A stretch of DNA of 64,000 nt, taken from assembly GCA_000004985.1 (NCBI GenBank), contig GG738903.1; one strand, given 5' to 3'. The stretch is from Naegleria gruberi (Eukaryota). Each line of letters begins with the position of its first letter. The first letter of the stretch is position 1. The notes beneath the pieces are model-generated. The model was not told the DNA's origin, did no database searches, and was given only the letters and a program-made list of their open reading frames with translations. The position numbers and the translations under genes were made by a program. Shown piece by piece: positions 5,170-61,500 of the stretch.

Positions 5170-6051
5170 TTAAAGAGAGTAAACTTCGTAATCTAGAGTG
5201 GTAAATTCACGAGTTGATCCAGTCAAGTAATCCTTTCCCAAATTTGAATAAGTGAATGGATTAGTGAAACTTTTCTTGGTACCTCTAGCAATGAAAATAT
5301 CATGTCCACCTCCAAAAGTTGGATGATCAACAGATCTATGATAAACTGAATAATTGACATATGCAGAATGTGGTCCATCTTGAATCAATTTCTTGAATCT
5401 TTCATCTCTCTTTGGTCCAATTAAACTAAATAAGAAAGCTTTGGAATCTGGGAAGAAATCCAACATTGCTGAACTCCAACTCACTGAAGTATAACCTCCA
5501 AAGATAGCTCCTGAGCTTGCCTTAATAATTGTTACAGTTGGTCCTTGATTATCACATTTTGAATGGAAAGATCTGGCTCTGAATCCATCCTTAGATGCAT
5601 TATAAAGTAATTTCATTGGTCTAGTTTTAACATCTTTCAACAATTCATCAATAAATCTCTTAGATTGATTTGCAGTTAAAAAAGTTGATTTTGACAAATC
5701 TCCAATTAATCCCAAATCCACCTTTGATTCCGTTTTCCTCTTACTTGTTCTCTTTTTAAGAATTTTCAGTTTAACGCTCTTTGATTTTGTTGGGTTGCCA
5801 TCCTTATTAGCATTCAAGGTAACCCGAGGAGCATTTCTATTCCTAACAACAACTGCTTGTTTACGCATCACCTTCTTACCATGTTGGTTTTGTTGTTGTT
5901 TTGATCGTTTTATTAATCTTGCTGTTGCCTTAATAGAAGCCTTGGTAGTTCCCTTAGCTTTCTTCCCCTCAACAGCAGAAACAACAACAACACTCAACAC
6001 GACCAACAGCAACAACAATAACAAGAAGAAAACGCCTCTCCTCATCATCAT
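5170..6051 (-). CDS. TLDc-domain protein with N-terminal signal anchor
   Basis: 293 codons. N-terminus MMMRRGVFFLLLLLLLVVLSVVVVSA is hydrophobic (signal peptide or type II anchor). A basic linker follows. The C-terminal 160 residues match the TLDc pattern: LLYNASKDGF..FHSKCDNQGPTVTIIK..GAIFGGYTSVSW...AFLFSL...FGGGHDIFI...EVYSL. Confidence 0.6.
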   Translation of the reverse strand: MMMRRGVFFLLLLLLLVVLSVVVVSAVEGKKAKGTTKASIKATARLIKRSKQQQNQHGKKVMRKQAVVVRNRNAPRVTLNANKDGNPTKSKSVKLKILKKRTSKRKTESKVDLGLIGDLSKSTFLTANQSKRFIDELLKDVKTRPMKLLYNASKDGFRARSFHSKCDNQGPTVTIIKASSGAIFGGYTSVSWSSAMLDFFPDSKAFLFSLIGPKRDERFKKLIQDGPHSAYVNYSVYHRSVDHPTFGGGHDIFIARGTKKSFTNPFTYSNLGKDYLTGSTREFTTLDYEVYSL

Positions 6052-14591: not shown

Positions 14592-15800
14592 TTATAATTG
14601 AGAGATGGCTGATTCTTGAGGTTTTGATAAGGAAAATATGCTAATTTTGTCCCAAAGTGGAATTTCAGTGAAAATTTCTGATTGGTCAACTAGGATTGGT
14701 ATTCCACTAGTGTTTGATTTGGTTTCACTATTCACATATTCTCTAAAGTCTTCCTTTCTAATAATCTGATCTGAATTCAACGCAGATTGAGAAATGTCAT
14801 CTCGTTTCTGAATAATTTCGACACTTGTCACAGATTGTGAGCTAGCGCTGTTAAATTCAATCAATACAAAGTCCAAAGGACCAAATGAAAATGTTACAAT
14901 AATGCAAAATAAGAGGAGGGATATTTTGTGGATGAATAAACAAATAGGATAAAGTGGAATATAGTAAGCGAAAGCAAATCCTCCAAAACTCATTGAAATT
15001 AAGTTGAGAAGAGCCATGTAGAGTTGACCAAATGTTAGTAGGAGCATTTTACGACATGATTTTCTTCTCTGATCGGTTACTGGAAACTTTTGATTGAGAA
15101 TTAGCTTTCTAATTAGTAAAACAACAATTACCATATTTAGTATGGGAAAGAAGATGGTTGCCAAACAAATGATTGAAATGTAAAATCCGAAAATAACCCT
15201 TGAAATGTTGGACATGATGGTAAAACCTTCAGAATCTATCCATTTCCTTTCGGTGTCATAATATTTGAAAAGACTATAGGTTATTACTAATGGTATTACA
15301 ATTACAATAATCAAGTTGACTATTACAATAAGTGTAATACTTGTTATTTTGATAAAATCTCTCAGCCTCTGATTACCCTTATTCATTCTCATCCACTCAT
15401 GTGATTTGTTAAAATACAATCCATACAAAATTTTTGTAACAACACCAAGGCAATTGGTGCACATTACAATTGACAAGAAAAAAAGCGACTGTTCCAATGA
15501 CGCGCTAATTACTATAAGAATTTCTCCAAAATCTACAAGAATTGAAGTACCAGTCACTATCCCCACTATCTGGAACACTTCTTCCAAAGCAAAAACCAAT
15601 AAAACCATTGAATATAGCAATTTCTTATTGTAAACCATTTTTTTGTAATTCATAATGAAAATGACAAACATAAATACAGAGCAACTGGAAAATATGATGA
15701 ATCCGATACCATTCAATGGTATTCCAATGCTTGATGTCACTATATCTTCCATAGGAATCGTTGAATTGCTGCTCAGAGTTGCAAAAACGTCATTTGCCAT
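14592..15800 (-). CDS. Lineage-specific 7TM receptor-like protein, array member 1
   Basis: 402 codons. Seven predicted hydrophobic helices with the N-terminus outside (N-glyco sequon NST). Family motifs are shared with 17028-18128, 18277-19394 and 21810-23207: WMR after TM3, TDQ[RK]RK.CRK in loop 3, FGQ in TM6, and SFGPLD after TM7. Confidence 0.75.
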   Translation of the reverse strand: MANDVFATLSSNSTIPMEDIVTSSIGIPLNGIGFIIFSSCSVFMFVIFIMNYKKMVYNKKLLYSMVLLVFALEEVFQIVGIVTGTSILVDFGEILIVISASLEQSLFFLSIVMCTNCLGVVTKILYGLYFNKSHEWMRMNKGNQRLRDFIKITSITLIVIVNLIIVIVIPLVITYSLFKYYDTERKWIDSEGFTIMSNISRVIFGFYISIICLATIFFPILNMVIVVLLIRKLILNQKFPVTDQRRKSCRKMLLLTFGQLYMALLNLISMSFGGFAFAYYIPLYPICLFIHKISLLLFCIIVTFSFGPLDFVLIEFNSASSQSVTSVEIIQKRDDISQSALNSDQIIRKEDFREYVNSETKSNTSGIPILVDQSEIFTEIPLWDKISIFSLSKPQESAISQL

Positions 15801-17027: not shown

Positions 17028-18128
17028 TTACACTTTATTTGGGTCAATTGTTTCGTTTGTTTCGTCTTTTTCCACCACAATTTCTGAAACTACCTTAGTA
17101 GAAACATTTGCTTTCACATCCCTTTCCTCAATCTCAATCTTATTCATTGATTTCCTTTTTACAATATTTGCCAATTGATGTCCAAATTCAGAAACATTAT
17201 CCAGTGGTCCAAAAGAAAAGTTTACAACAATACAAAAAATGAAAATTGATGATCTGTGAATTAAAATTGAAATTACACTGAGTGGCATGACAGCACTAGC
17301 AACTCCGGCAGTAATGACACCCACTGCATTCATCATAGACATTATAACTTGACCAAAGTTCAGAATTAGCAAGTTTCGGCAGACTTTCCTTTTTTGGTCG
17401 GTTATGACACTTTGATTTTGACCAAGTAGCTTTCTAATCAACAAGACGGTGATTGTAAAGTTGAGAATTGACAAATAAAAGAATGCTGCAGATATTACAC
17501 TTCCAAGAGTTGGATGAAATATTTTTGTAAACTGTTGTATAGTAAGAACTTGACTCAAGCTCAGAATTTTCCTTCCCGGATCAATAAAAGTCAATAATGA
17601 TGAGATAAACGCATAGGGCATGCTCAAAATCAACAGCAAATTGAAAAATGCAACAATTCCAATCGTTGAAATAAGCACCACTTTCTTACCAATCGAATGA
17701 AGTTTCGAATTTCTCATCCAAGTTTGATTTTCATTAAAATACACTGCATAAAGTACTTTCGTTATAACAGCCTGACAATCCAAACATAATGTCAAGCTCA
17801 ATAAATATCCAGCAAACTCAAATCCAAGAAAAGTTCCGGTCAACCCAAGTGGACCAACAAGCAGAGCTGAAGTATACCCAATTAAACCACATAATTGATA
17901 AATCTGCTGATTTAAACAGGTAAATATCAAGAGTAGGTACATTAATCTCTTGTTTTTCACCATTTTCTTCCATTTATAGATTAGTAGAATCGTCATGGAA
18001 AGTAGAAGAAACAAGAAGAATAAAGCTCCGAGAGAATTGAGAGTAATGATGGAAATAAAGGTGCCAAGATAATCTGATTTGGCTGTAGGTGAGGCAGATG
18101 TTGTAGAGTTGGTCAATGTCGAGTTCAT
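17028..18128 (-). CDS. Lineage-specific 7TM receptor-like protein, array member 2
   Basis: 366 codons, 7 TM. Same family motifs: WMRNSK, TDQKRKVCRNLLILNFGQ, NFSFGPLDNVSEFGHQLANIVKRK. Confidence 0.75.
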   Translation of the reverse strand: MNSTLTNSTTSASPTAKSDYLGTFISIITLNSLGALFFLFLLLSMTILLIYKWKKMVKNKRLMYLLLIFTCLNQQIYQLCGLIGYTSALLVGPLGLTGTFLGFEFAGYLLSLTLCLDCQAVITKVLYAVYFNENQTWMRNSKLHSIGKKVVLISTIGIVAFFNLLLILSMPYAFISSLLTFIDPGRKILSLSQVLTIQQFTKIFHPTLGSVISAAFFYLSILNFTITVLLIRKLLGQNQSVITDQKRKVCRNLLILNFGQVIMSMMNAVGVITAGVASAVMPLSVISILIHRSSIFIFCIVVNFSFGPLDNVSEFGHQLANIVKRKSMNKIEIEERDVKANVSTKVVSEIVVEKDETNETIDPNKV

Positions 18129-21809: not shown

Positions 21810-23207
21810 TTAATCATTGAGAGGAATATCAACAAAGATATCTTCATATTGTATATTATCGATTTTCGTCGTAGTAGTTTGATGATGATCAGTAGCAGTA
21901 CTCATAGTGGTATTACTGTCATTACTTTTCTTACTGTCATTACAATTGGTTGGAGCACGCAACTGATCAGTTGCAATCGCCTCCTGAGGCCCAAAGGAGC
22001 TAGTAATGTTGAAGGGTGAGTAAATGGGCTGCTTGTTTGTTGCTGTATACTTGATCATCATCATGGAAGATATTTCGCTGGCTTTTCTAAATGCCTTTGA
22101 ATCAATATTGAAAGAGTTTGAAGTTTTTTGATTGGTGAGTTGAATTTCACTGGTTTGACATGAGGATTGAGTATTATCCCCATGTGGCTTCTTCTTACCT
22201 TCCAATTTTAATTCATAATGAAAGTAATCCATAGGTCCAAAACTGAAACTCACACAAATGGCAAATAACAGAAACACAAATCTATGAATGACACCAGTCA
22301 ATATGAACAAGTATGGATACCATATACCAATAGCTCCCAAAATAATTGAGATTGAATTAATAATTGCCATGTAGAATTGACCAAATGTTAAGAGTACCAA
22401 CTTTTTACATGCATTTCTGCGAGGGATTGGGACTGGCCTGTTTTGGAGAAGGTATCTTGAGAGTAGAAGAACCAAAGTTAAATTTAACACTCCTGTAATG
22501 ATGGCACATCCAGAGTTTACAAGACCAACAATGGCCACAGAAATAATTGACCAAATGCCAAGAATACTTCCAACTCGTGTATTTCCTCCATCCATATAAT
22601 ATACCATTGAACAGATCAGAGTGAATGGAACGAGAATAATGAATGCAATAGTCCAAATTAATGTCATTCCAATTGTGTAATATTTTGTAAATATTCTAAA
22701 CTTTTCATTGAATGAATAGCTTTCTGCTCCCTTCCTCATCCATGAATGAGATTGATGAAAGTAAATTCCATACAATACTTTTGAAACCATTGCTTGAAAA
22801 TAGGTACACATTACAACAGTTGACACGAGTCCACAATAATAAATAACGAAAAATAATTGACTCAAAAATTCCTGAATATGAGTCAGTGCTCCAACATCGT
22901 GAGCTATTCCAACTCCCTGTGAGAGAATTTGCAAGATGGCTGTAAATATTAAGGAAATGTAAAAGAATCTCTTGAAGGGAATCATTTCCTTCCATCGTTT
23001 GATGAGGAGAGTGGTCATTATAATGGTCAGTATCAGATAACTCAGTATTCCAATTCCATGAGTAGTAACAGAAATGTAGTATCGTTCTATTGCAGAAGTA
23101 AAAGTTGATGATGAAATATTGTATTGATGGAAAACTATTCCTGGATTCAATGAGCCATGCTGATGCTGGTCAACAATAGAAACAGTCATCTCACGATTAT
23201 TATTCAT
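21810..23207 (-). CDS. Lineage-specific 7TM receptor-like protein, array member 4, with long C-terminal tail
   Basis: 465 codons, 7 TM. Motifs WMRKGAESYSF, RRNACKKLVLLTFGQFYMAI, SFSFGPMDYF. Confidence 0.75.
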   Translation of the reverse strand: MNNNREMTVSIVDQHQHGSLNPGIVFHQYNISSSTFTSAIERYYISVTTHGIGILSYLILTIIMTTLLIKRWKEMIPFKRFFYISLIFTAILQILSQGVGIAHDVGALTHIQEFLSQLFFVIYYCGLVSTVVMCTYFQAMVSKVLYGIYFHQSHSWMRKGAESYSFNEKFRIFTKYYTIGMTLIWTIAFIILVPFTLICSMVYYMDGGNTRVGSILGIWSIISVAIVGLVNSGCAIITGVLNLTLVLLLSRYLLQNRPVPIPRRNACKKLVLLTFGQFYMAIINSISIILGAIGIWYPYLFILTGVIHRFVFLLFAICVSFSFGPMDYFHYELKLEGKKKPHGDNTQSSCQTSEIQLTNQKTSNSFNIDSKAFRKASEISSMMMIKYTATNKQPIYSPFNITSSFGPQEAIATDQLRAPTNCNDSKKSNDSNTTMSTATDHHQTTTTKIDNIQYEDIFVDIPLND

Positions 23208-33466: not shown

Positions 33467-34756
33467 TCAACCAGTGAAGGAATAGCAGAAATTGGAATAA
33501 TCTGTTTCTGGTAGAACAATAAAGTTGAAGAATTCAATAAATGGCTTTGAATGGACCGAAAGACTTTTGGAATACGAAATTGGATTATGGAAATTCTCAG
33601 AATCATTGAGGCACTTTTCACAAATTCGCAAGTTTCCAATCTCTGAGGAATAAATACCCACCACTGATCCATCTTCTTTCATTGATTGGTAATACTCTCT
33701 TAGACAATCACTGCATCTTACAAACCCTCCACCCTCATGAATTCCATGAAATTCAACCAAAATAAAATTGTTAACATGGTGAACTTTACAAGATTTAGAA
33801 ATCATTACACCCCCAGAGCTACCAAAAGTAAGACATTCAGAACTGGCTAAACACTCTTGAGTGGAGTGGTCGTATTGGAATTCTTCGTTTTTCTCCCATA
33901 TATCATTATTGGAAACTTGGAAAGGATGAAGAATTTTGCCAACACTGGCACACAAACTTCCATTACCATTAAAGATGTTGTTCTTTAAGAACGAATCTGT
34001 TGGAGCCCACTCTGCATAATTATGATAATCTATTAAAGGGGAAACAGAGTTTTCATTTCCAGGATACGAAAGTGTGATTATTTCATCTCCAGGTTGCAAA
34101 ATGGTTGAAGAGGGAATAAAGAAAACATTGTTTGGTTGGCCAGAGTACTTGTTAGCTGCAAAATCAAAATACGAAAAATCCCCAATCTTTCCAGTAATTG
34201 GATCTCTACCAATCCATTCTTTTGTTTGTTTAAACTTTGTTGGAAAGGGTGCATCCTTATATACTTGACCAGAAAAGAAAAGTTGTTTCTGCTCTGGAAG
34301 ATCTTTCAATCTAGCCAAGGCGTCTTCATAATTGCTAATGTTCCATGCATTGCTGTAGGCAAAACAAAGGTTAGATCCAGTAGCACTTTGCAATTTGTTA
34401 TTCACATGACAATTAGTTATCACCACATTCGGGAGCACATAAAAACCAGAAGCAGCATATACTAATCTCCCTGTTTGCTTCTCAACTGAACATAATCTAA
34501 CAACAGCCTTTGAGCCTTCCTTTGCACTCTCTAGGGACTTTAAAACATCCAAATATTCGATTAGATATTTGCAATTTGGTGCTGTCCAGTTTAGTTGTTG
34601 ATTAAACCAAAAAACATTGAAACATGTATTGGGAGGAAAATGAGCCTTATTGTCTTGACTTGGTGGAACTTTTTCAAAATTCTCTTCCGAAACAATTTCA
34701 TTCCCCGAAGGAATGTAGCAAGTAATTACTTCTAAACGCTCCTTGAAGAATCTCAT
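33467..34756 (-). CDS. Trypsin-like (S1 family, bacterial S1B/Trypsin_2-like) serine peptidase
   Basis: ATG MRFF at 34756. His motif VLPNVVITNCHV. Ser motif TFGSSGGVMISK (GxSGG). Asp candidates in between. No signal peptide. Extra C-terminal Cys-rich segment CSDCLREYY...CEKCLND. Confidence 0.6.
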   Translation of the reverse strand: MRFFKERLEVITCYIPSGNEIVSEENFEKVPPSQDNKAHFPPNTCFNVFWFNQQLNWTAPNCKYLIEYLDVLKSLESAKEGSKAVVRLCSVEKQTGRLVYAASGFYVLPNVVITNCHVNNKLQSATGSNLCFAYSNAWNISNYEDALARLKDLPEQKQLFFSGQVYKDAPFPTKFKQTKEWIGRDPITGKIGDFSYFDFAANKYSGQPNNVFFIPSSTILQPGDEIITLSYPGNENSVSPLIDYHNYAEWAPTDSFLKNNIFNGNGSLCASVGKILHPFQVSNNDIWEKNEEFQYDHSTQECLASSECLTFGSSGGVMISKSCKVHHVNNFILVEFHGIHEGGGFVRCSDCLREYYQSMKEDGSVVGIYSSEIGNLRICEKCLNDSENFHNPISYSKSLSVHSKPFIEFFNFIVLPETDYSNFCYSFTG

Positions 34757-35235: not shown

Positions 35236-37439
35236 ATGAACAGCAAGAGTATCATCTCATTGTTGCTCGTTGCCGTTTTGGCCATCGTTTTCATGTCAAG
35301 TGGAATTGATGCCAGAAAGAGCAAGGCAAAGAGAGCTGCTGAAGCAACACTGAAACGTTGCCAAGCATTAGGTGACCCACACTACAAAACTTTCAATGGA
35401 AAATTCGATTTCTACGGAGTTGGTGATTACGTTTTTGCTCAAACCAATGACGGTAATCTTATTATTCACACTAGAACTGGAAAGTGGAACAAGGCTTCAG
35501 TCAATACCGCTGTTGGTATGTAATTTAATTATTATTCCAATATCATGATTTTAACAATAATTATTCACATAATACATTTCATGATGCAATTTATTTTCAA
35601 CTGATGACATTTGACATGTGGAAATTATTACTTCATATTTTTTCATGATGCATCCAATTCTTCTTTTAAAACTATTTATCAAAAACAACAGCTGTTAAAC
35701 TTGAAGGATCAAGAATTTTCGAATATGATGTTGTTTCTGATAAATTCTTCTTGAACAAGGTCCCAACCAAGATTAACGTTGGTGAAACCGTCTCTTTGGG
35801 AACCAAATCATCAGTTAAGAGAGCTTCACAAACTTCATTCGTTGTCACTGCATCAAATGGTGCCATCTTGTCTGCCTCTTATTCCAGAAGCCCAGCTTAT
35901 TTGAAGACTGGATCAATTGGTCACATTAACTTGATTCTCGATTCACCAAAGTCTGTTGACTACACTGAAGGATCATTGTGTTCAAGAGCAAAGGTTAACG
36001 CCAGAACCCGATTGCCACGTGCTATTGGTATTTTGCATAACCACAAGATTAGAAAATTCAGAAAGGTTCCATCAACCAAGGATTTCCCAGCTGATAAGGT
36101 CAAGAAGGCCAGATCTGTCTGTAGAAAGGCTGGTATCAAGTTGAAGAAGCATCCAAATGCTTTCAAGGCTTGTGTTAAGGATCAACTTTTGACTGGTAAG
36201 AAATTGGGTAAGAAGATTGCCAAGAAGATCGCCAAGGTTGAAAAACTTGAAGATAAGAAGAAGAAGAAACTCGTCAAGAAGATTATCAAGAAGGCCAAGA
36301 AGGCTGCCAAGAAGAGACTTGTCAAGAAGAAGAAGTTGTTGAAGAAGTTGAAGAAATTGTTAAAGAAGAAGTCTCGTGCTGCTAAGAAGGCTGTTAGAAA
36401 ATTGAAGAGAAAGCTCAGAAAGTTGAAGAGAAAGCCAAAGAAGGTCTCCACCAAGACTAAGAAGGCTAAGAGAGCTTCAAGAAAATTGAAGAGAAAGCTC
36501 AGAAAGTTGAGAAGATGTGCTAAGAAGGCTAAATCTTTGAAGAAGAGAAAGGCTTGCAGAAAGCTCTTGAAGAGAATTAGAAAGTTGAGAAAGCTCAGAA
36601 AGTTGAGAAGAAGAGGTGCCAGAAGAGGTGCTAGAAGACCAAGACGTGTTATCATCATCAAGAAATGCAAGAGATCTCCAAGAAGAAGAGGTGTCAGAAG
36701 ACCAAAGAGAAGAACTTCTAGAAAGATCAAGAAGGCCCAAAAGAAGAGAGCTAAGAAACTCGTTAGAAAGCTCAGAAAGATCAAGAAGGCTCAAAAGAAG
36801 AGAGTTAAGAAGGCTAAGAGAGCTGCTAGAAAGGCTAGACGTGCTGCTAGAAAGTTGAAGAGAAAGCTCAGAAGATTGGCTAGAAGACTCAAGAAGGCCA
36901 AGTCTTTTAAGGCTGCCAGACGTGCTAGACGTGCTTTGAGACTTGTTAAGAGACGTGCTAGACGTGCTGCTAAGCGTGCTTGTAAGCTCCGTAAGAGAGC
37001 CAAGAAGGTCAAGAAGGCTCTTAAGAGAAAGGTCAAGAAGGCCAAGAGAGCTGCCAGAAAGGCTAGAAAGGCTAGAAGAAACAGAAGACTCTCCAAGAAG
37101 GTTAAGAAGATCGTCAAGAGAACTTCTAGAGTTGTTGTCAAGAAGACAACTGCTAGAAAGATCAGAAAGTTGTTGAGAAAGGTCTTGAAGTTGAAGAAGA
37201 GATTGGGTAGAAAGTTCTGTCCAAAGAAGCACTTGCCAAGAAAGCTCAGATTGCTCTTGAAGAAATTGAAGGTCAAGATTGTTGCTTGTAAGAGAGGTAG
37301 AAGAGTTTCTAAGAGAAGAATCAACAAGAGAAAGCTCAGAAAACTCAGAAAGGTTAGAAAGGTCAGAAGAAACAGAAGAGGTGTTACTGTCATTGGTAAG
37401 AGACTTGCCAGACAATTGGTTAAGGTTTCTAGATGTTAA
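35236..37439 (+). CDS. Secreted von Willebrand D-domain protein with giant polycationic Lys/Arg/Leu heptad tail
   Basis: Exon 1 35236-35515: signal peptide MNSKSIISLLLVAVLAIVFMSSGIDA, then CQALGDPHYKTFNGKFDFYGVGDYVF (VWD hallmark including a GDPH Asp-Pro site). Intron 35516-35691 (GTATGT...AACAG), phase 1. Exon 2 35692-37439 continues the VWD domain, then about 420 residues (from ~36186) of KKLLKKLKKLLKKK / RKLKRKLRKLRR-type sequence with 8 spaced Cys. Codons aag and aga dominate. Confidence 0.7.
36186..37439 (+). repeat. Low-complexity coding repeat (AAG/AGA/TTG codon iterations) encoding the polycationic tail
   Basis: Imperfect reiteration of KLRK, KAKKA and RRAARKA units. It generates spurious long Leu/Ser/Phe ORFs on the opposite strand. 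Confidence 0.8.
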
Positions 37440-37568: not shown

Positions 37569-39730
37569 ATGAAGAAGGTTCTTAGTCCATCATCTCTTCA
37601 ACTCAATTTGAAAATTGCTTCGGGAGCTATTGCTTCATCATCAAAACATGCAACACAAATTGTAAAATATCTTGCTCAACAACAGCTGGCATCTGTTAAT
37701 TCTTCCTATCATCAATCTAGTCGAGTTTCAACAAGCAAAAAAAAGGATAACGATGATGATGAATTTAAAAAGAACATGAACAACATATTTGGAGCATTGG
37801 GAGGCTCGGAACAAGTGAAAGGACATTTGAATGATATATTCAATGCTTTTTTAAAACCTGGAGCAAATATTCATACTTCAGGTGCTTCGAATTCTTCATC
37901 TTCATCATCTAAAAAGAGTGAACAACAAACAACGGAAAATGATGAAGCAAACAAGCCAAAGAATACCTTCATTCAAGATGAAGAACGATTAAACGAGAAT
38001 TTCCACAAGATTGTCTTTGAAGCCTATCACATGCAACGTAAACAATTTGAAAACAAATTGACACCACAAGAAATTGTGAATTGTCTTGATAAACATATTG
38101 TTGGACAAAAGGATGCAAAGAAGGCTGTCAGTGTAGCCCTTCGTAATAGATATAGAAGAAAGATTTTGATTGATTGGGCAAAGAGTGAAAAAACTTTACT
38201 TGATCCTTCTGAGATAATTCCAAAGAATATTTTAATGATTGGATCAACAGGTTGTGGTAAAACTGAAATTGCAAGAAGATTGGCAAAATTAGTTTCTGCT
38301 CCATTCTTGAAGGTTTGTTTAATTCAATGTTCTCTATTAATTTATTATTATTATTTTATTATTATTATTATTATTGGAATGTTCTTAATGAAAAAATTAT
38401 ATAGGTGGAAGCAACTAAATATACAGAACTTGGATATCATGGAAGAGATGTGGATACTATTGCTAGAGACTTGGTGGATGTTTCTATCAATGTTTTGAGA
38501 AATAATATTACTGATCTTTTCAAACAATTTTTAAATAGACCACCATCATCAACACCATCCGAACAAGAAGAAGGAACTTTGGAAGAACCAGACTTGTTTG
38601 GATCCTATCTTCAACAATTAATAGAGTATAGAATCATTCACTTGATGATTGGAACAAAAAATATAGCAAATTTGAGAAATGGTACCATTAAGGATTATTT
38701 GAACATGTTAAGAAATGGAGAATTGGACGATAGAAAAATTGAAGTGAGCATGCCTGAAAAGAAATCATCATTAGGATTATCTCAATTCAGTGACGTGTTT
38801 GATGCTGTCAAGGGTTCATTTGGATCATCTCTTGATAATTCCAAATTTTCAATGCCAGATGTTGCCAACTTGTCAGATCATCAAACACCACTTGACTCAA
38901 TGTTAGGTCAATTAAATCCACAAAAATATAAAAAGGTTGAAATGACAATTAAGGAAGCCAAAGTGAGATTAGTAGAGTTGGAAATGGATAAATTTTTGAA
39001 TAGCCCATTATTCATTGAAGAGGCAAGAAAGATTGCTGAAAGTGATGGAATTGTCTTTATTGATGAAATTGACAAGATTTGTGGAAGTCCTGAAAAGAAG
39101 GCCGTTCAAGGAGATGCCTCAGGAGAGGGAGTGCAAAGGGATTTATTACCACTGTTAGAGGGTTGCACAATTAATACTAAATATGGTCCAGTCAAGACGG
39201 ATCATGTTTTGTTTATTGCTAGTGGTGCTTTCCATCAACAAAAGCCATCTGATTTAATGTCTGAATTCCAAGGTAGATTGCCAGTAAGAATCATGTTAAC
39301 TGCACTTAATACGCCTGAAGAGCTCTATCAAGTATTAACAATGCCAGAATTCAACCTTGTGAGACAAAATATTTCCCTTATGAATAGTGAGGGTATTTCT
39401 TTGGTCTTTAGTGACGCAGCTAATAGAGAAATTGCCAATTTCAGTGCCTTGTGTAATGCAGGAAATGATAATCTTGGTGCAAGAAGATTAATTGGAATTA
39501 TTGAAAAGGTAATTGATGAAATGTCTTTTATTATTCCAGACTTAGTGAGAATGGAGGATACTGAAAAAGCTGCACAAGAATTGAGAAATATTGGATTTAA
39601 CACTTTTGAAATATCAAGACAAGATAATAGAAATGCTATTACAATCACAATAACAGCCGAAGATGTGCAAAAGAAACTGGAAAAGAGCTCACAATTTAAA
39701 AAGTTGGATGTGAAGAAGTTTATGATTTAA
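37569..39730 (+). CDS. hslU: HslU-type AAA+ ATPase (ATP-dependent protease HslVU ATPase subunit), probable mitochondrial
   Basis: Exon 1 37569-38312, intron 38313-38404 (GTTTGT...TATATAG, phase 0), exon 2 38405-39730. The junction restores the canonical [23 protein letters not shown] sequence. Other motifs: [25 protein letters not shown], Walker [18 protein letters not shown], sensor/arginine-finger region [11 protein letters not shown], an I-domain insert, and an N-terminal presequence-like [24 protein letters not shown]. Confidence 0.85.
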
Positions 39731-55583: not shown

Positions 55584-58500
55584 ATGTCTCTTGACTACTG
55601 TATGGTCTCTAACAGAGTAAAACTCTGTAAGGTTACTGTTTGTATGCTTGTGACCCTAGTTATCTTGTCCATTTTGGCTTCTAATACTAATGCATTTGAA
55701 TGTACAGGTACAGATTCTTGTAATGGTAGAGGTTTTTGTTCAACCACAGGTGATTCTTGTCAATGTTTGACAACTCTCAACTATGATTTGAATAATAATG
55801 CCAATACTATGGTTGCTAACTCTTCCCTTTCATTCTATACTCTAGGTTCAAGTGATGGAGAAGAACCATCCTATACTTTCATTTCTGGTAATACTACCTA
55901 TGTTTCCAAAATTACTTTTGATGGTACTAATGTAAATGTTATTGTAAAGAATCAAAGTATTTTGACTCAAGATGTTGGTAGTGGATATCAATACCTCACT
56001 CTCAAAATTGATGGTAGTTTAGGAATGTGTCAAAGTGATAAGATTGATTGTGTTGCTCTCACTAGTAACGGTGGTGTTAATTCTGCTGCTTGTAATGGAA
56101 CTGGTCCTTTCTATTTCTTCTTTAGAAAGGATGGTTTAATCTCTGTTTTAGATAGTACTGGTGCAGAATGTTGGAACAGTAATGTTTTCGATTCATCAGT
56201 TAAATATCAAGATTTTGCTGGTACTAGTTGTCAAGATTCATTGTATTATTGTAATGGTATTGTAAATACTGATGCTAATGTTTGTAGTGGTAAGGGAAAG
56301 TGTGGTTCTACTGGTTGTACTTGTAACAATACAACTCAATGGACTGGATCTGATTGCTCAACCCCTATTTGTTATGGTTTACCTTCTACTGATGCTAACG
56401 TTTGTAAAGGAAGAGGTTCATGTGCTGCTCCAGATTCTTGTTCATGCACTATTGGTCAAGCTCCATATTGTAATGTAACTTGTGGAAATGTTTCTGAAAG
56501 TTCTCCTAGTGTCTGTAATGGATTTGGTCAATGTATTTCCCAAGATACTTGTCAATGTACAAATCCAAATTATTCTGGTAAGAATTGTGATGTTTATAGT
56601 TGGGTATGTCAAGATGTCAATTCTTGTAACTCTAAAGGTTTCTGTGCCAATAGTACTTTGTGTGATTGTTCCTATGATTACATGAATATTGTTAATGGTG
56701 GTGCTACTCTCTATCGTGATGTTGTTACTAATGCTTTTGCTAATTCTCCAAATTTCAATTGTTCCCTTCGTCAAGTTGCTACTGTTGTAAATAATCAAAC
56801 TGTATATCCATTGGTAGGAATTTGTGGTGGTGTCACTATTTGGACTTATCCAATTACTACTTTTACTAGTTTACTTGAATATCTCACAATTACAGCAAAT
56901 GGTCACGTTCTTGTTGAAGGTAACACTCAACTCTTAGATTTCAATTCTAATATGGCAATTAATACAACCACTCCTGTTTACAGTATGGGAAATGATGGTG
57001 TATTCAGAATTTACTCATCCACTGGTACAAATACCTATTCTCTTGGTACTTCAAATGGTCTTACAGGTTGGACTCTTGCTTATGGTCAACAATGTCAATC
57101 TTCACACAGTTTTTGTAATGGTCTCCTCGATACTGATCCAAATGTTTGTAGTAGACGTGGTTCATGTGTTATGGGAAGTTATTGTGATTGTAAGCATGGT
57201 TTTGGTGGTACTAATTGTGAAAAGGAAGCCACTTGTGATGGAATTCCTCAATCATCCAACTTAACTTGTTCAGGACATGGTAATTGCACTTTCCAGGGAT
57301 GTACTTGTACTGCTCCATACTATGGAAGTAATTGTTCTCAAAGATATTATACCTGTTATGGTATTGCTTCAACAAATCCATCTACTTGTAGCGCTAATGG
57401 TAAATGTGTTGAAGACAATACTTGCGTTTGTAATAATGGTTTCAGTGGATCAATGTGTCAAAGTCTTTCATCTAACAATGGAACTAACAATGGTACAATC
57501 AACAATAATGGTACAATTAATAACAATGGTACTGTTAATAATAATGGAACTATTAACAATAATGGTACAACCAATAATAATGGTACTGCTAACAATGGTA
57601 CTGTTAATAACAATGGAACAATTAACAACAATAATGGTACATCTAATAATGGTACTTCCAATAATAATGGAACCGTTGTTGATCCATGTAAGAATATCAC
57701 TTGTCAATATGGTATTTGCTCTGCAGGCAAGTGTATCTGTAGTTATAGTACCGATTATTTCTATTATGGACCTACTTGTTCAAAATACAGTGCAGTTATG
57801 TGTCAAAGCTTAATGCAAGCTTCCACAGCTCCATTCTGTGCCTCAGTTGGTGTAACTCCTAATATTATGAATTTTGTTTCTGAACTTGGTTATAATCTTC
57901 TTGCTAAATATAATGGTGCGCTTAATGAAAGCGTTGTCAGTGCTCAAGCTGTTTCAGAACTAGATAATGCTGCCTTGTTAATGTCTCAAGCATTCGTCAA
58001 AGCTTGTACCAATGATGCTTGCCGTCTTGCCTATAAGAGATATGCTTGCTATTCACAATTCCCAATTTGTTCTGCAAATACTTACATGCCAGTTTGTAAT
58101 GGTGCTTGTACTACTGCCCTTAGTCCATATCCACTTCCAAATGTTAATTTGACAAGTTTGTGTGGATCTCTTCCATCTAAATATTGTACCAATGATATTA
58201 ACTATGTAGATGCCAAGTGTGTTGGTGTAACTTGTTCTGGTCGTGGATCTTGTTCAAATGGAACTTGTAATTGTGCAAGTGGCTATACTGGTGCTAATTG
58301 TGAACAAGTTATCATTCCATACTCTCTCACTCCTGCCTGTGTAAATGTAATGTCCTCATCTTCAACTCCTTTCTGTGCCTCTGCTGGAGTTGTTCTCCCA
58401 TTGTATAATGTTAATTTAATGAATGGTGCTAAGAGTGAAAGCCAAGCTGCTAGTATGCTTGCTGCTAGTTTAGCTCAATTAGATGCCCAAGCTAATGCTA

Positions 58501-61500
58501 CCTTCTTAACTGGATCTTCTTATAATCCTAATTGTGCAACTGCTGATTGCTTGATTCATATTAAGAGATATGCATGTTATACTACATTCAAGTCTTGTAT
58601 TAATACTACTTCAACTGCTGTTCCATGGTGTAAATCTGCATGTCAAATCATGTATACTCAAGCTAGTACTATTGCTAATTTTAGTTATCCAATGAATGCT
58701 ACATGTGACTCATTCCCTGACTCCAACTGTAACTACGGTGTCTACCTTCCTTCCACTACCACTTGTTTTGGTAAATCAATTAAGGATGCTACTGTATGTT
58801 CAGGAAAAGGATCATGTATTTCTCAAGATACTTGTAATTGTGCAAATGGTTATTCTGGAAGCAATTGTGAAAAGGCAGTTTGTTTCTCAAAGATTAGTTC
58901 TGATTCATCAGTTTGTTCAGGAAGAGGTTCATGTGTTGCTCCAAATAGTTGTACATGTAAAACAGGATACACAGGAGAAAAATGTGAACTTCCAACATGT
59001 AATGGTAAGAGTGATGTTTTGGGTGGTTGTTCATTCCGTGGATCTTGTAATACTACTGATTCTTGTATCTGTAATGGTAATTTTGATTCATCAACATTCT
59101 GTTCTAAATGTAAGAGTGGTTATGTTGGATCAAATTGTGATGTTCCAGTATGTTTCTTAATTTCTGCCACTGATAGTACTGTTTGTGGAGGTCAAGGTTC
59201 TTGCATTAGTCCAAACACTTGTAAATGTAAATCAGGATATTCAGGCACTGCTTGTCAAACCTTCTCTTGTTATGGTATTTCAAAGACTGACAGTAATGTC
59301 TGTGGTGGAAGTACAAGAGGTTCATGTATTGGTCCAGACAATTGTAAATGTGTTACCAATTGGAACAATAAGAATAATACTTGTACTAGTTGCAGTCCTG
59401 CATACACTGGTTCTTCATGTACTACTCCAGTTTGTAGTGCAACTGATACATGTAATTCTCATGGTACTTGTGATTCTAATTTCAAGTGTGTCTGTACTGG
59501 TAATTTCATTGGTGATTATTGTTCATCATGTGCCACTGGATTTGTTGGTGCAAATTGTGATATTTCTTGCTCAGCTGCCAAGACATGTAATTCACACGGT
59601 TCATGTACCAATACTGGTTCTTGTACTTGTAATGGTAATTTTGATCCTTCTTTCAATTGTGCATCTGCTAAATGTCTTAATGGTTTCTTGGGTGATGGAT
59701 GTAATTACAAGGTTGATACATCTTCTTTCAAGTTCAATGCTAATGGTGATAGAATTACTGCTACCATTTATAATGCTGTCAAGACTCAAGTTGCCTGTTC
59801 TCAAATTATTTCATCTCTCTCCAAGCTTGGTACTGGTCCAATTTGTAACATGGATGGTAAATCATCTATTGAAATTATTTTAGGTGTTGGTGCTACCATT
59901 GTTACTGGTGATTCATTAACTCTTTATTCATTGATTGGTGACTCTAGCTCAACTGTTAATGCTGTTGTTTCTGCTGGTGAATTTGTTGCTTTAGCACCAA
60001 CTTCTGCATTGACTTCTGACAAGTCTCTTGTTTCCCAATGTGATGTTTTGAATTTGAATGCATTTGATTCTGTTTCTCTTGATCGTCGTCCTCTTACATT
60101 CTCTTGGACTTGTACTGCTGGTCCATCATCAGATGATCAAACCAAATTGAATTCTTTAATTTCCTCTACTACATTGAGTGGTATCNNNNNNNNNNNNNNN
60201 NNNNNNNNNNNNNNNNNNNNNNNNNNNNNNNNNNNATTGCTCAAGCAGCTCCAACTCTTTCAATTAAGGAAGGTACTTCTGTTAAATTCCTCATTGGAAC
60301 TACAAGTCTCATTACACCAGTAATTTCATTCCCAACTTGTTATACTGGTACAGGTGCTACAACTTATACATTTACACTTGATGGATCTGTTTCAAAGGTT
60401 TCATCCTTATCAGTTTCTACCAAGAATAACTTGTTGGTCCTTGGTTCTAGTTTTACCAATATTAATCAAGAAGGTGATTATTACTTTATTGTAACTGCAT
60501 CTGCTGATAGTGCTCAAGCAGTTAGTACAACTGTTAAAGTTAGTGCTGTTGCTCAACCTATTTCAGTTGCATTCAGTGTTCCAGATATGACTCAATCTAA
60601 GGATGACCCAGTTGCCTTCTCTATTTCTGTTACTGATCCAAGTAATACTCAAGATACATTGACTCTCTCAACAACATGTATTGATTCAACTGGTACTTCT
60701 TGTTCTAATCCAGGTTCTGCTTCATCATTCAGTTCTTCATTCGCAGCTGGTACTTATATCTTTACTACCACTGCTACTAAGGGTTCAAGAACTTCAAGTG
60801 CCAAATTGACAATTACAGTTCTCGATACTTCAAAGAGTTTAATTGTCAGAGTTTCAATTACTTCCAATGTTGATTTGACAACTGTTGATCCAACAAAGGA
60901 CTTGTATTTGACCTATAATACTTTGGATTCCTTGTCTGCTCCAACATTCTCTTGGACCTCTGCTACTGGTGATGTTTCTTCAAGTTCTCTTCTCATCATT
61001 CCAAGCTCTAATCTTGTTCCTGGTTCTTCCTATGTTGTTTCTTTATCAGTTGTTGATGGTGCTAAATCCGGTACTGCATCTGTCACAATTACAGTCAACT
61101 CTCCTCCAACAGTTGGTGTCTTTGAAGTTTATCCAACTAGTGGTGTTGCTTTGAGTGATTCATTCAGTCTCAAGTGTGGTAATGGTTGGTCTGATCCACA
61201 AACTCCATTATCATTCCAATTCTTCTTCTATGATTCTGTATCTATGAAGTGGAATTCACTCACTGAAAAGTCTCAACAACAAAGTGCCAACATTCAACTT
61301 CCATCACCAAGTTCAGGTTCAACATTGACTATTAAGGCTGTTGTTTATGATGCTTTGGGAGCTTCTTCTGAATCTAGAACAAATATTACCATTACTCAAC
61401 CAAGTAATGCCGACGTTGCAAGTACTTTAACTTCAATGGCAAAGGGTACTAATACTGTTACCTTGTCTGGTGTTAGTGCTGCAATGTTTGTTATTGGTGC

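Follow-up and report, generated by a model that had tools for sequence, protein, structure and literature searches.

Within a 64,000-nucleotide (nt) stretch of the Naegleria gruberi genome (contig GG738903.1 of assembly GCA_000004985.1; the window, for short), positions 35,236 to 37,439 encode a protein with an uncharacterised architecture, in which a von Willebrand factor D (VWD) domain is joined to a helical polycation of several hundred residues and to a new C-terminal module. Two conclusions are well supported: the gene is a real one for which N. gruberi had no model before, and it is a member of a family restricted so far to Naegleria and Willaertia. The host is N. gruberi NEG-M, one of the Heterolobosea: of six ATG-initiated open reading frames (ORFs) elsewhere in the window that were compared by exact sequence, four match annotated NEG-M proteins (XP_002671706, NAEGRDRAFT_73274, 73281 and 73291), all of them from a single 304-kb scaffold. 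An initial annotation of the stretch, made from its letters alone, had described the protein accurately in all material respects and had rightly taken the host to be a bacterivorous amoeba, but it looked for relatives among dictyostelids and other amoebozoans, an affiliation that does not hold.

The gene consists of two exons on the plus strand, 35236-35515 and 35692-37439, whose splicing gives an in-frame coding sequence of 2028 nt that specifies 675 amino acids (aa) and closes with a TAA stop. Exon 1 starts with an ATG followed by the signal peptide, supplies residues 1-93 along with the first base of codon 94, and is followed by a GT donor at 35516; the same start of the protein is seen in orthologues. 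Exon 2 encodes residues 94-675, TAA included. The intron between them (35516-35691; 176 nt, GTATGT...ACAG) has a GC content of 22%, compared to 36-41% in the flanking exons. The splice junction of the window gene, KASVNTAVAVKLEG, aligns with uninterrupted sequence in N. lovaniensis (KVSVNTAFAVKINQ) and Willaertia magna (KVSVNTGIAVKVDR), where the orthologue ABK040_003113 is intronless and collinear over the junction position. Because orthologues read straight over it, the 35515/35692 junction is supported, and so are the intron and the fusion of both exons that had been proposed initially. The N. lovaniensis orthologue, C9374_004053, has an intron of its own, located eight codons upstream of the N. 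gruberi intron. The two also differ in phase: the N. gruberi intron interrupts codon 94 in phase 1, the N. lovaniensis intron (L002, 6274-6427) lies in phase 2 in the Lys equivalent to K86. Either intron sliding or independent gain or loss might account for the differing positions.

The 675-aa product is absent from a collection of 15 billion proteins, and there is no protein model on either strand of the locus in the public N. gruberi set. With the product itself absent and the best N. gruberi match to the full-length query being a paralogue that is only 42% identical, we conclude that the gene is unmodelled in the public annotation.

Residues 1-25 (35236-35310) read as a signal peptide, MNSKSIISLLLVAVLAIVFMSSGIDA, with predicted cleavage between IDA and RK. 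As the initial annotation had supposed, a secretory signal is likely here: the n-, h- and c-region pattern can be read from the sequence, and a junction with (E/D)(A/S/G) before the cut and (R/K)(R/K) after it is kept throughout the family. The VWD domain itself extends from C42 to C190 (35359-35981, spanning the intron). The early proposal of a true VWD domain, which here opens with a canonical C-x3-GDPHY, is borne out by a score above the Pfam threshold: residues 42-148 match profile positions 1-109 of 156 in PF00094 with 27.6 bits against a cut-off of 22.9 (E=4.2e-6), and precomputed PF00094 matches are also present on homologues. A profile built from three orthologues (A3) was searched against PDB sequences and against 1.84 billion representative proteins; among the former it finds FCGBP (8rde, E=2.6e-45 overall, best single domain 2e-10) along with MUC5B, MUC5AC, MUC2 and VWF. 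The fold was assessed on an AlphaFold2 (AF2) model of the W. magna orthologue (44% identical), in which the predicted local distance difference test (pLDDT) score is 82-94 in the beta-sandwich core. All 21 best Foldseek matches of this model in the PDB (E 2e-7 to 3e-4) contain VWD or VWD-like domains, namely those of VWF D'D3, MUC5B, MUC5AC, MUC2, FCGBP and Cypridina luciferase.

VWD cysteines are kept at the first position (C42) and in the terminal GSLC (C190), and the internal cysteine of the G-x-C-x-Y motif is replaced (GVGDY) in all close family members, so that we regard the window domain as a putative Cys-depleted variant. It is the only domain found when the window protein is scanned with Pfam, which detects no C8, TIL or CTCK domain. 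After it comes a two-helix hairpin with C237 and C254 (36087-36197; A-R-x2-C-x-K-A-G ... C-x2-D ... G-K), which includes invariant alignment columns and whose helices have pLDDT above 80 in both the W. magna model and a model of the exon-2 product. In view of the conserved signal peptide and the extracellular type of the VWD domain, we rejected a nuclear protein akin to histone H1 or protamine.

At the start of the domain, the GDPH motif (G46-D47-P48-H49, 35371-35382) is a candidate site for Asp-Pro autocleavage. The motif is at least 90% conserved in an 11-row family alignment and invariant in the three orthologues. In domain D10 of FCGBP, the Asp and the His of GDPH are needed for self-cleavage between Asp and Pro (PMC10880436); the cleaved strand of FCGBP is reported to remain tethered by a disulfide, and cleavage to stabilise the domain (PMC10880436; PMC8267560). 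Given that Asp, His and the upstream Cys are all conserved in the window protein, self-cleavage at its GDPH motif would be plausible. The motif does not make the protein a member of the RGM family, which we rejected at 17.6 bits versus a gathering threshold of 27 for RGM_C (PF06534), the match being confined to the 19 residues (40-58) around GDPH.

The polycationic, amphipathic tail occupies residues 263-577 (36198-37142), as judged by composition, periodicity, hydrophobic moment and AF2 helices. Counted from residue 281 to the end of the protein at 675, the sequence is 31% K, 25% R, 11% L and 11% A (K 31-32% and R 23-25% if the count starts at about residue 263), and there is no D or E past residue 281. 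The tail has a net charge of approximately +220 and the mature protein one of approximately +255, with an isoelectric point (pI) of 12; to our knowledge, +255 is close to the extreme among secreted proteins with folded domains. The early description of an extreme cationic amphipathic tail with about 55% K+R is upheld. The eight spaced cysteines attributed to the tail are present as a feature but not in that number: there are seven, spread through the tail, and with four more in the N-terminal part the whole protein has 11. S and T together make up about 5% of the tail, and N-glycosylation sequons are absent from it.

Apolar residues in the tail have their global Fourier peak at 3.60 residues (z ~7 relative to shuffled sequence). 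The mean hydrophobic moment in windows of 18 aa is 0.55, compared to 0.30+-0.02 after shuffling; 40% of these windows exceed 0.6, and segments such as RRAARKLKRKLRRLARRL exceed 1.0. AF2, run on the exon-2 product, places helices at residues 266-317, 322-407, 431-495 and 499-574 (protein numbering), mostly with pLDDT 80-90 and with local dips to 69-78. The main break in the tail outside the C-terminal module falls at residues 408-430; a Gly/Pro/Arg-rich hinge (RRRGARRGARRPRRVIIIKKCKRSPRRRGVRRP, 36609-36704) holds three of the seven tail Gly and three of the six tail Pro and is predicted with pLDDT below 50. Two short tandem repeats of 21 nt (7 aa) are present in the DNA of the tail, and the AF2 helices are single and extended. 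Overall, the pattern fits an amphipathic alpha-helix and neither proves nor excludes a coiled coil. The coiled-coil-like arrangement that had been suggested initially is not established, with a periodicity peak at 3.6 rather than 3.5 residues and isolated long helices in the AlphaFold model. Polylysine is a coil until neutralised, and from polyelectrolyte behaviour a chain devoid of counter-charges should likewise be expanded for as long as it is not neutralised, so that AF2 confidence on the tail should be read cautiously.

The initial annotation laid the protein out as a VWD domain plus a basic tail. Both are present, but a conserved two-Cys module at the C-terminus had been overlooked (LKLKKRLGRKFCPKKHLP...C626...C675; 37143-37436), which emerges from an alignment of eight family members (A5). 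The module comprises about 65 aa with two Cys and three predicted helices, in the order LKLKKxLGxK[FW]xPxKHL, helix, C, loop, helix, C, and has no significant match in Pfam or by PDB sequence profile. The window gene carries a private K/R insertion of 23 aa inside it. Six family members, the window gene included, end in this module, and in the protein P0050 it directly follows the signal peptide and is succeeded by a Pro-rich linker and then the VWD domain. Since it is found at either end of the protein, it is probably an independent unit that is functionally coupled to VWD. In N. fowleri FDP41_011818 (L004, 8001-9580) the module is likewise located at the N-terminus, and domain order is permuted unless the model fuses two genes.

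Two homologues were recovered by a word-indexed search, the others by exhaustive profile and full-length searches. The architecture, for which the initial annotation knew of no described protein, is not unique: databases contain at least seven proteins from Naegleria and Willaertia, one of them an annotated paralogue in N. gruberi, that combine a VWD domain with a polycationic tail. The paralogue, NAEGRDRAFT_59485 (XP_002671385), has 926 aa and two VWD units. N. fowleri FDP41_006112 has 1055 aa, N. lovaniensis C9374_012176 has 1082 aa, and the W. magna members ABK040_008784 and ABK040_003113 have 575 and 455 aa; FDP41_012263, C9374_001324 and one ENA protein form a subfamily. VWD domains were previously noted in Naegleria by Lang et al. 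2016 (PMC4948705), and databases list the family members as hypothetical or 'VWFD domain-containing' only. In the common layout a signal peptide is followed by one or two Cys-poor VWD domains, a hairpin accompanying each, and then by the polycationic tail; most members also have the C-terminal module. The window protein has all four elements in alignable form and shares with its relatives the CxxxGDPHY start of the VWD domain and the K/R/A/L composition of the tail. Its N-terminal domain is 42-53% identical to theirs, and the closest relative is C9374_004053 (49-53% identity).

The window gene nevertheless differs from other members in several respects. It has one VWD domain, compared to two in the NAEGRDRAFT_59485 group, it stands apart through its private insertion, and it is itself unannotated. 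Its tail has the highest fraction of K+R (0.55) and the highest Leu content of nine full-length family tails, and its D+E fraction of 0.01 is equalled only by the two-VWD proteins of N. fowleri and N. lovaniensis. Tail charges in the family range from +59 to +226, the latter being that of the window gene. Eight of the nine tails have their top apolar period at 3.45-3.65 residues, the exception being C9374_012176 with 3.85; relative to shuffles, z scores for power in the 3.3-3.8 band are 7 to 19 in seven of the nine tails and around 2.3 in the other two. At the same time, the primary sequence of the tail is poorly conserved across the family, whereas composition is kept in all homologues. That charge and amphipathicity are kept while primary sequence varies suggests that it is charge and amphipathicity on which selection acts.

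Searching the 1.84 billion representative proteins with the three-orthologue profile returns 1988 matches at E<=1e-3 and 27 at E<=1e-30, which include giant multi-VWD proteins as well as many short, very basic metagenome proteins. In seven proteins of metagenome or ENA origin (P0042, P0052, P0055, P0063, P0069, P0070 and P0090), VWD plus hairpin is joined to extremely basic segments of other kinds: poly-His/Lys tracts, or arrays of K/R/Cys-rich repeats of about 40 aa (C..W....G..G.R..CC......C.G..C). Such proteins suggest that the association between this VWD subtype and polycations extends beyond Naegleria. A separate observation concerns two N. lovaniensis contigs, PYSW02000019.1 and PYSW02000045.1 (L001 and L002; 4534-7050), which have the same gene calls, a gene with a Ribosomal_S18 domain and the VWD gene, at the same coordinates. 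Both end, at position 1, inside the K-rich tail of C9374_004053, which suggests that the assembly broke or collapsed because of the repeat and that the N. lovaniensis protein model is therefore truncated.

The ORF stretches over 562 codons in a genome with 35% GC. The two exons share a strong skew in their codons (AAG 89%, TTC 86%, CCA 100%; ATA, GTA and GTG unused), with the AAG share in 13 neighbouring ORFs standing at 50%. The longest run of A in the tail coding sequence is 4; in 1000 simulations that assumed the local 50:50 usage of AAA and AAG, the longest run averaged 9.6 and was always at least 6. Poly(A) tracts make ribosomes stall and slip, so that their avoidance here is a signature of selection on translation. 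The choice of aag and aga codons had been taken as a sign of high expression; AAG bias is at least partly poly(A) avoidance, but in the VWD exon the codons of other amino acids are biased too, which remains compatible with that idea. The tail DNA contains short, degenerate repeats whose periods are 9, 12, 21, 27 and 54 nt, save one low-scoring row of period 10; periods that are multiples of three, coupled with the avoidance of A-runs, argue for selection for translation. Finally, the last ~100 residues of the window protein align with homologues as far as the C-terminal Cys. Conserved composition and C-terminus, repeat periods and poly(A) avoidance show that the tail is translated and under selection.

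What might such a protein be for? Naegleria feeds on bacteria, and amphipathic helices of positive charge attach to the anionic membranes of bacteria and disrupt them. Our preferred reading of the sequence, a tentative one with somewhat less than an even chance, is that the protein is secreted, binds polyanions multivalently and has bacterial envelopes as its target. The protein would enter the endoplasmic reticulum and lose its signal peptide after Ala25. The VWD beta-sandwich would fold, and a C42-C190 disulfide would tether the N-terminal strand should GDPH self-cleave between Asp and Pro in an acidic compartment. The tail, with ~315 residues, a charge of roughly +180 to +220 and no acidic residues, would remain an expanded or disordered chain for as long as nothing neutralises its charge. 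Once it meets a polyanionic surface, it might fold into long amphipathic helices and bind multivalently. The most probable target would be the envelope of prey bacteria (lipopolysaccharide, teichoic acids, anionic lipids), and the outcome agglutination and/or permeabilisation, in the medium or in the phagosome. The VWD domain and the C-terminal Cys module could serve as stabilising, oligomerising or docking ends. Signal-peptide cleavage, the C42-C190 disulfide, acid-dependent Asp-Pro cleavage, folding on polyanions and multivalent binding are all steps that we infer.

Several considerations weigh against this reading. At 395 aa, the tail exceeds all helical antimicrobial peptides known to us in length by an order of magnitude. 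For low-complexity K/R sequence, the confidence given by AlphaFold may be too high. A protein with a charge of +255 would also be sticky to the amoeba's own surface and indeed to any polyanion, so that the target is not specified by the sequence. No paper in the searchable literature mentions any of five family locus tags, and that on Naegleria VWFD proteins, cyst-wall proteomics and the secretome has nothing to say on this reading or its rivals. Conserved Cys-bearing modules at the termini fit a role in a polymer or matrix at least as well.

Imagine, then, that the protein is a 'cationic mucin', a cement or a matrix component that assembles end to end via the VWD domain and the two-Cys module, the ends being joined by disulfides or non-covalently, as VWD and CTCK are in mucins and VWF. 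The polycationic rod would in this scenario cross-link acidic polysaccharides or surfaces, be it in the cyst wall, in the ostiole plug, during substrate adhesion or in a net that traps bacteria. We consider this main rival less likely. Ordered, Cys-bearing ends around a long, charged, low-complexity centre are what one finds in gel-forming mucins, and the fold matches are to those very assemblies. The C-terminal module is conserved and mobile (N-terminal in FDP41_011818 and P0050), which suggests a docking or assembly unit, and the seven Cys along the tail point in the same direction, as do related Naegleria VWD proteins with mucin-like S/T/K-rich regions (P0012, P0013, P0071 and P0074). However, the C8, TIL and CTCK domains are not found by Pfam, the VWD domain does not have the Cys that form intermolecular bonds in mucin D3, and the tail is without sequons and has little S/T. 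It is a doubtful conjecture that the family as a whole is a polycationic counterpart of gel-forming mucins, in which self-cleaving VWD heads and two-Cys C-terminal modules would assemble helical rods of +200 into an extracellular net or coacervate that flocculates and kills prey bacteria or cements the cyst wall. If true, protists would have a type of extracellular material not known before, and nature a giant polycation with antimicrobial action.

That the protein acts on a lumenal polyanion as its counter-ion or packaging factor, condensing polyphosphate or acidic glycans in secretory vesicles, acidocalcisomes or the contractile-vacuole system, or that it scavenges extracellular polyphosphate or DNA, strikes us as improbable. 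Extreme charge density, the lack of acidic residues and predicted targeting to the secretory pathway are as this model would have them, and condensation of polycations with polyanions should follow from generic physics. Yet neither the sequence nor the neighbourhood contains a pointer to polyphosphate metabolism, there is no adjacent gene for an acidic partner, and the conserved 3.6-residue amphipathic pattern would be superfluous for plain charge neutralisation.

We give equally little credence to a polyprotein precursor that dibasic convertases or lysosomal proteases cut into many short cationic antimicrobial peptides. Naegleria does make naegleriapores from multipeptide precursors, and the 395-aa tail offers 115 dibasic positions as well as its segments of hydrophobic moment above 1.0. 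But the tail has no regular layout of units and spacers, its repeats being short, degenerate and irregular; no peptide units are conserved in homologues; and sites of such density would give di- to hexapeptides rather than defined peptides.

The reading in which the K/R region is no protein feature but a purine-rich repeat that does not code, an artefact of assembly or an antisense gene, and in which the VWD exon is spliced elsewhere, is almost certainly wrong and we reject it: although the public N. gruberi proteins include no model for the locus and the N. lovaniensis assembly breaks within the orthologous tail, 562 codons are open, the C-terminal module and terminal Cys are kept in W. magna and paralogues, full-length homologues are complete in four species, repeat periods are multiples of three, poly(A) is avoided, codon bias is common to exon 1, and the ORFs on the antisense strand consist of mirror-image low complexity (S/L or F/L), the sole ATG-initiated one being absent from the 15-billion-protein collection. 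Nor is the basic region a degenerate non-translated repeat, a possibility raised initially, as homologues conserve its composition and the C-terminal module.

As to the genomic surroundings, an intron-split AAA+ gene, HslU-like by motif reading, follows directly downstream (37569-39730, plus strand). In W. magna, ABK040_003113 lies two genes upstream of an AAA_2 gene (L003, 10074-11736), and the neighbourhood appears to be common to both orthologues in the form of partial synteny. The immediate upstream gene is divergent (NAEGRDRAFT_52747, 33470-34756, minus strand) and encodes 429 aa in which trypsin-like motifs can be read (TNCHV ... GSSGG). Farther away on the minus strand, NAEGRDRAFT_73274 (5170-6051) has a signal peptide, a Lys-rich basic linker (KKAKGTTKASIKATARLIKRSK...) and then a domain that is TLDc-like by eye. 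Three tandem paralogous ORFs for multi-pass membrane proteins (14592-15800, 17028-18128 and 21810-23207, all on the minus strand) share KVLYG.YFN..H.WMR, LLIRKL and FSFGP.D and represent a local gene-family expansion. A large ORF for a surface protein with EGF-like repeats (55584-60323, plus strand) has ambiguous bases (17 X) near its 3' end, where there is an assembly gap.

Our findings add an unannotated gene and a new conserved module of ~65 aa to the Naegleria gene catalogue and extend the repertoire of VWD architectures outside animals. They raise the question of how so cationic a chain is translated and translocated, bearing in mind that the gene shows clear poly(A) avoidance, and of what use a polycation is to a bacterivorous amoeba that is, in the case of N. 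fowleri, pathogenic. N. fowleri has family members, so that a role in adhesion or cytotoxicity, if there is one, would be medically relevant. The tail may also provide a natural template for antimicrobial or adhesive polycations.

How does the protein compare to known systems? With FCGBP and the D assemblies of gel-forming mucins and VWF it shares a homologous VWD beta-sandwich, and like them (PMC10880436, PMC8267560) it is secreted, in its case by prediction. Its start motif, C-x-a-x-GDPHY-x-TF-x-G-x-x-YDF-x-G, recurs in self-cleaving FCGBP domains. Unlike mucin and VWF assemblies, which are built as VWD-C8-TIL-E, the window protein is devoid of C8, TIL, E, CTCK and a PTS/O-glycan region; it has lost the internal VWD cysteines (GVGDY instead of GxCxY); and its long central region is polycationic where that of gel-forming mucins is polyanionic. 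With VWD as the only assembly domain, a two-Cys hairpin after it and a tail low in S+T, it does not belong to that class. RGM and hemojuvelin, whose GDPH-containing VWD is known for Asp-Pro autocleavage, have a GDPH-containing partial VWD domain in common with the window protein, which is not one of their number. Cecropins, magainin, LL-37 and designed LK/KLAK peptides display the same local grammar (KKLLKKLKKLLKK, RKLKRKLRKLRR), 3.6-residue periodicity and high moment as the tail, which has the charge (net +220) and the amphipathic helices typical of cationic helical antimicrobial peptides. This likeness would be one of mode of action and is not one of homologous family: the tail is ten to thirty times longer than these peptides and is joined to folded domains at both ends.

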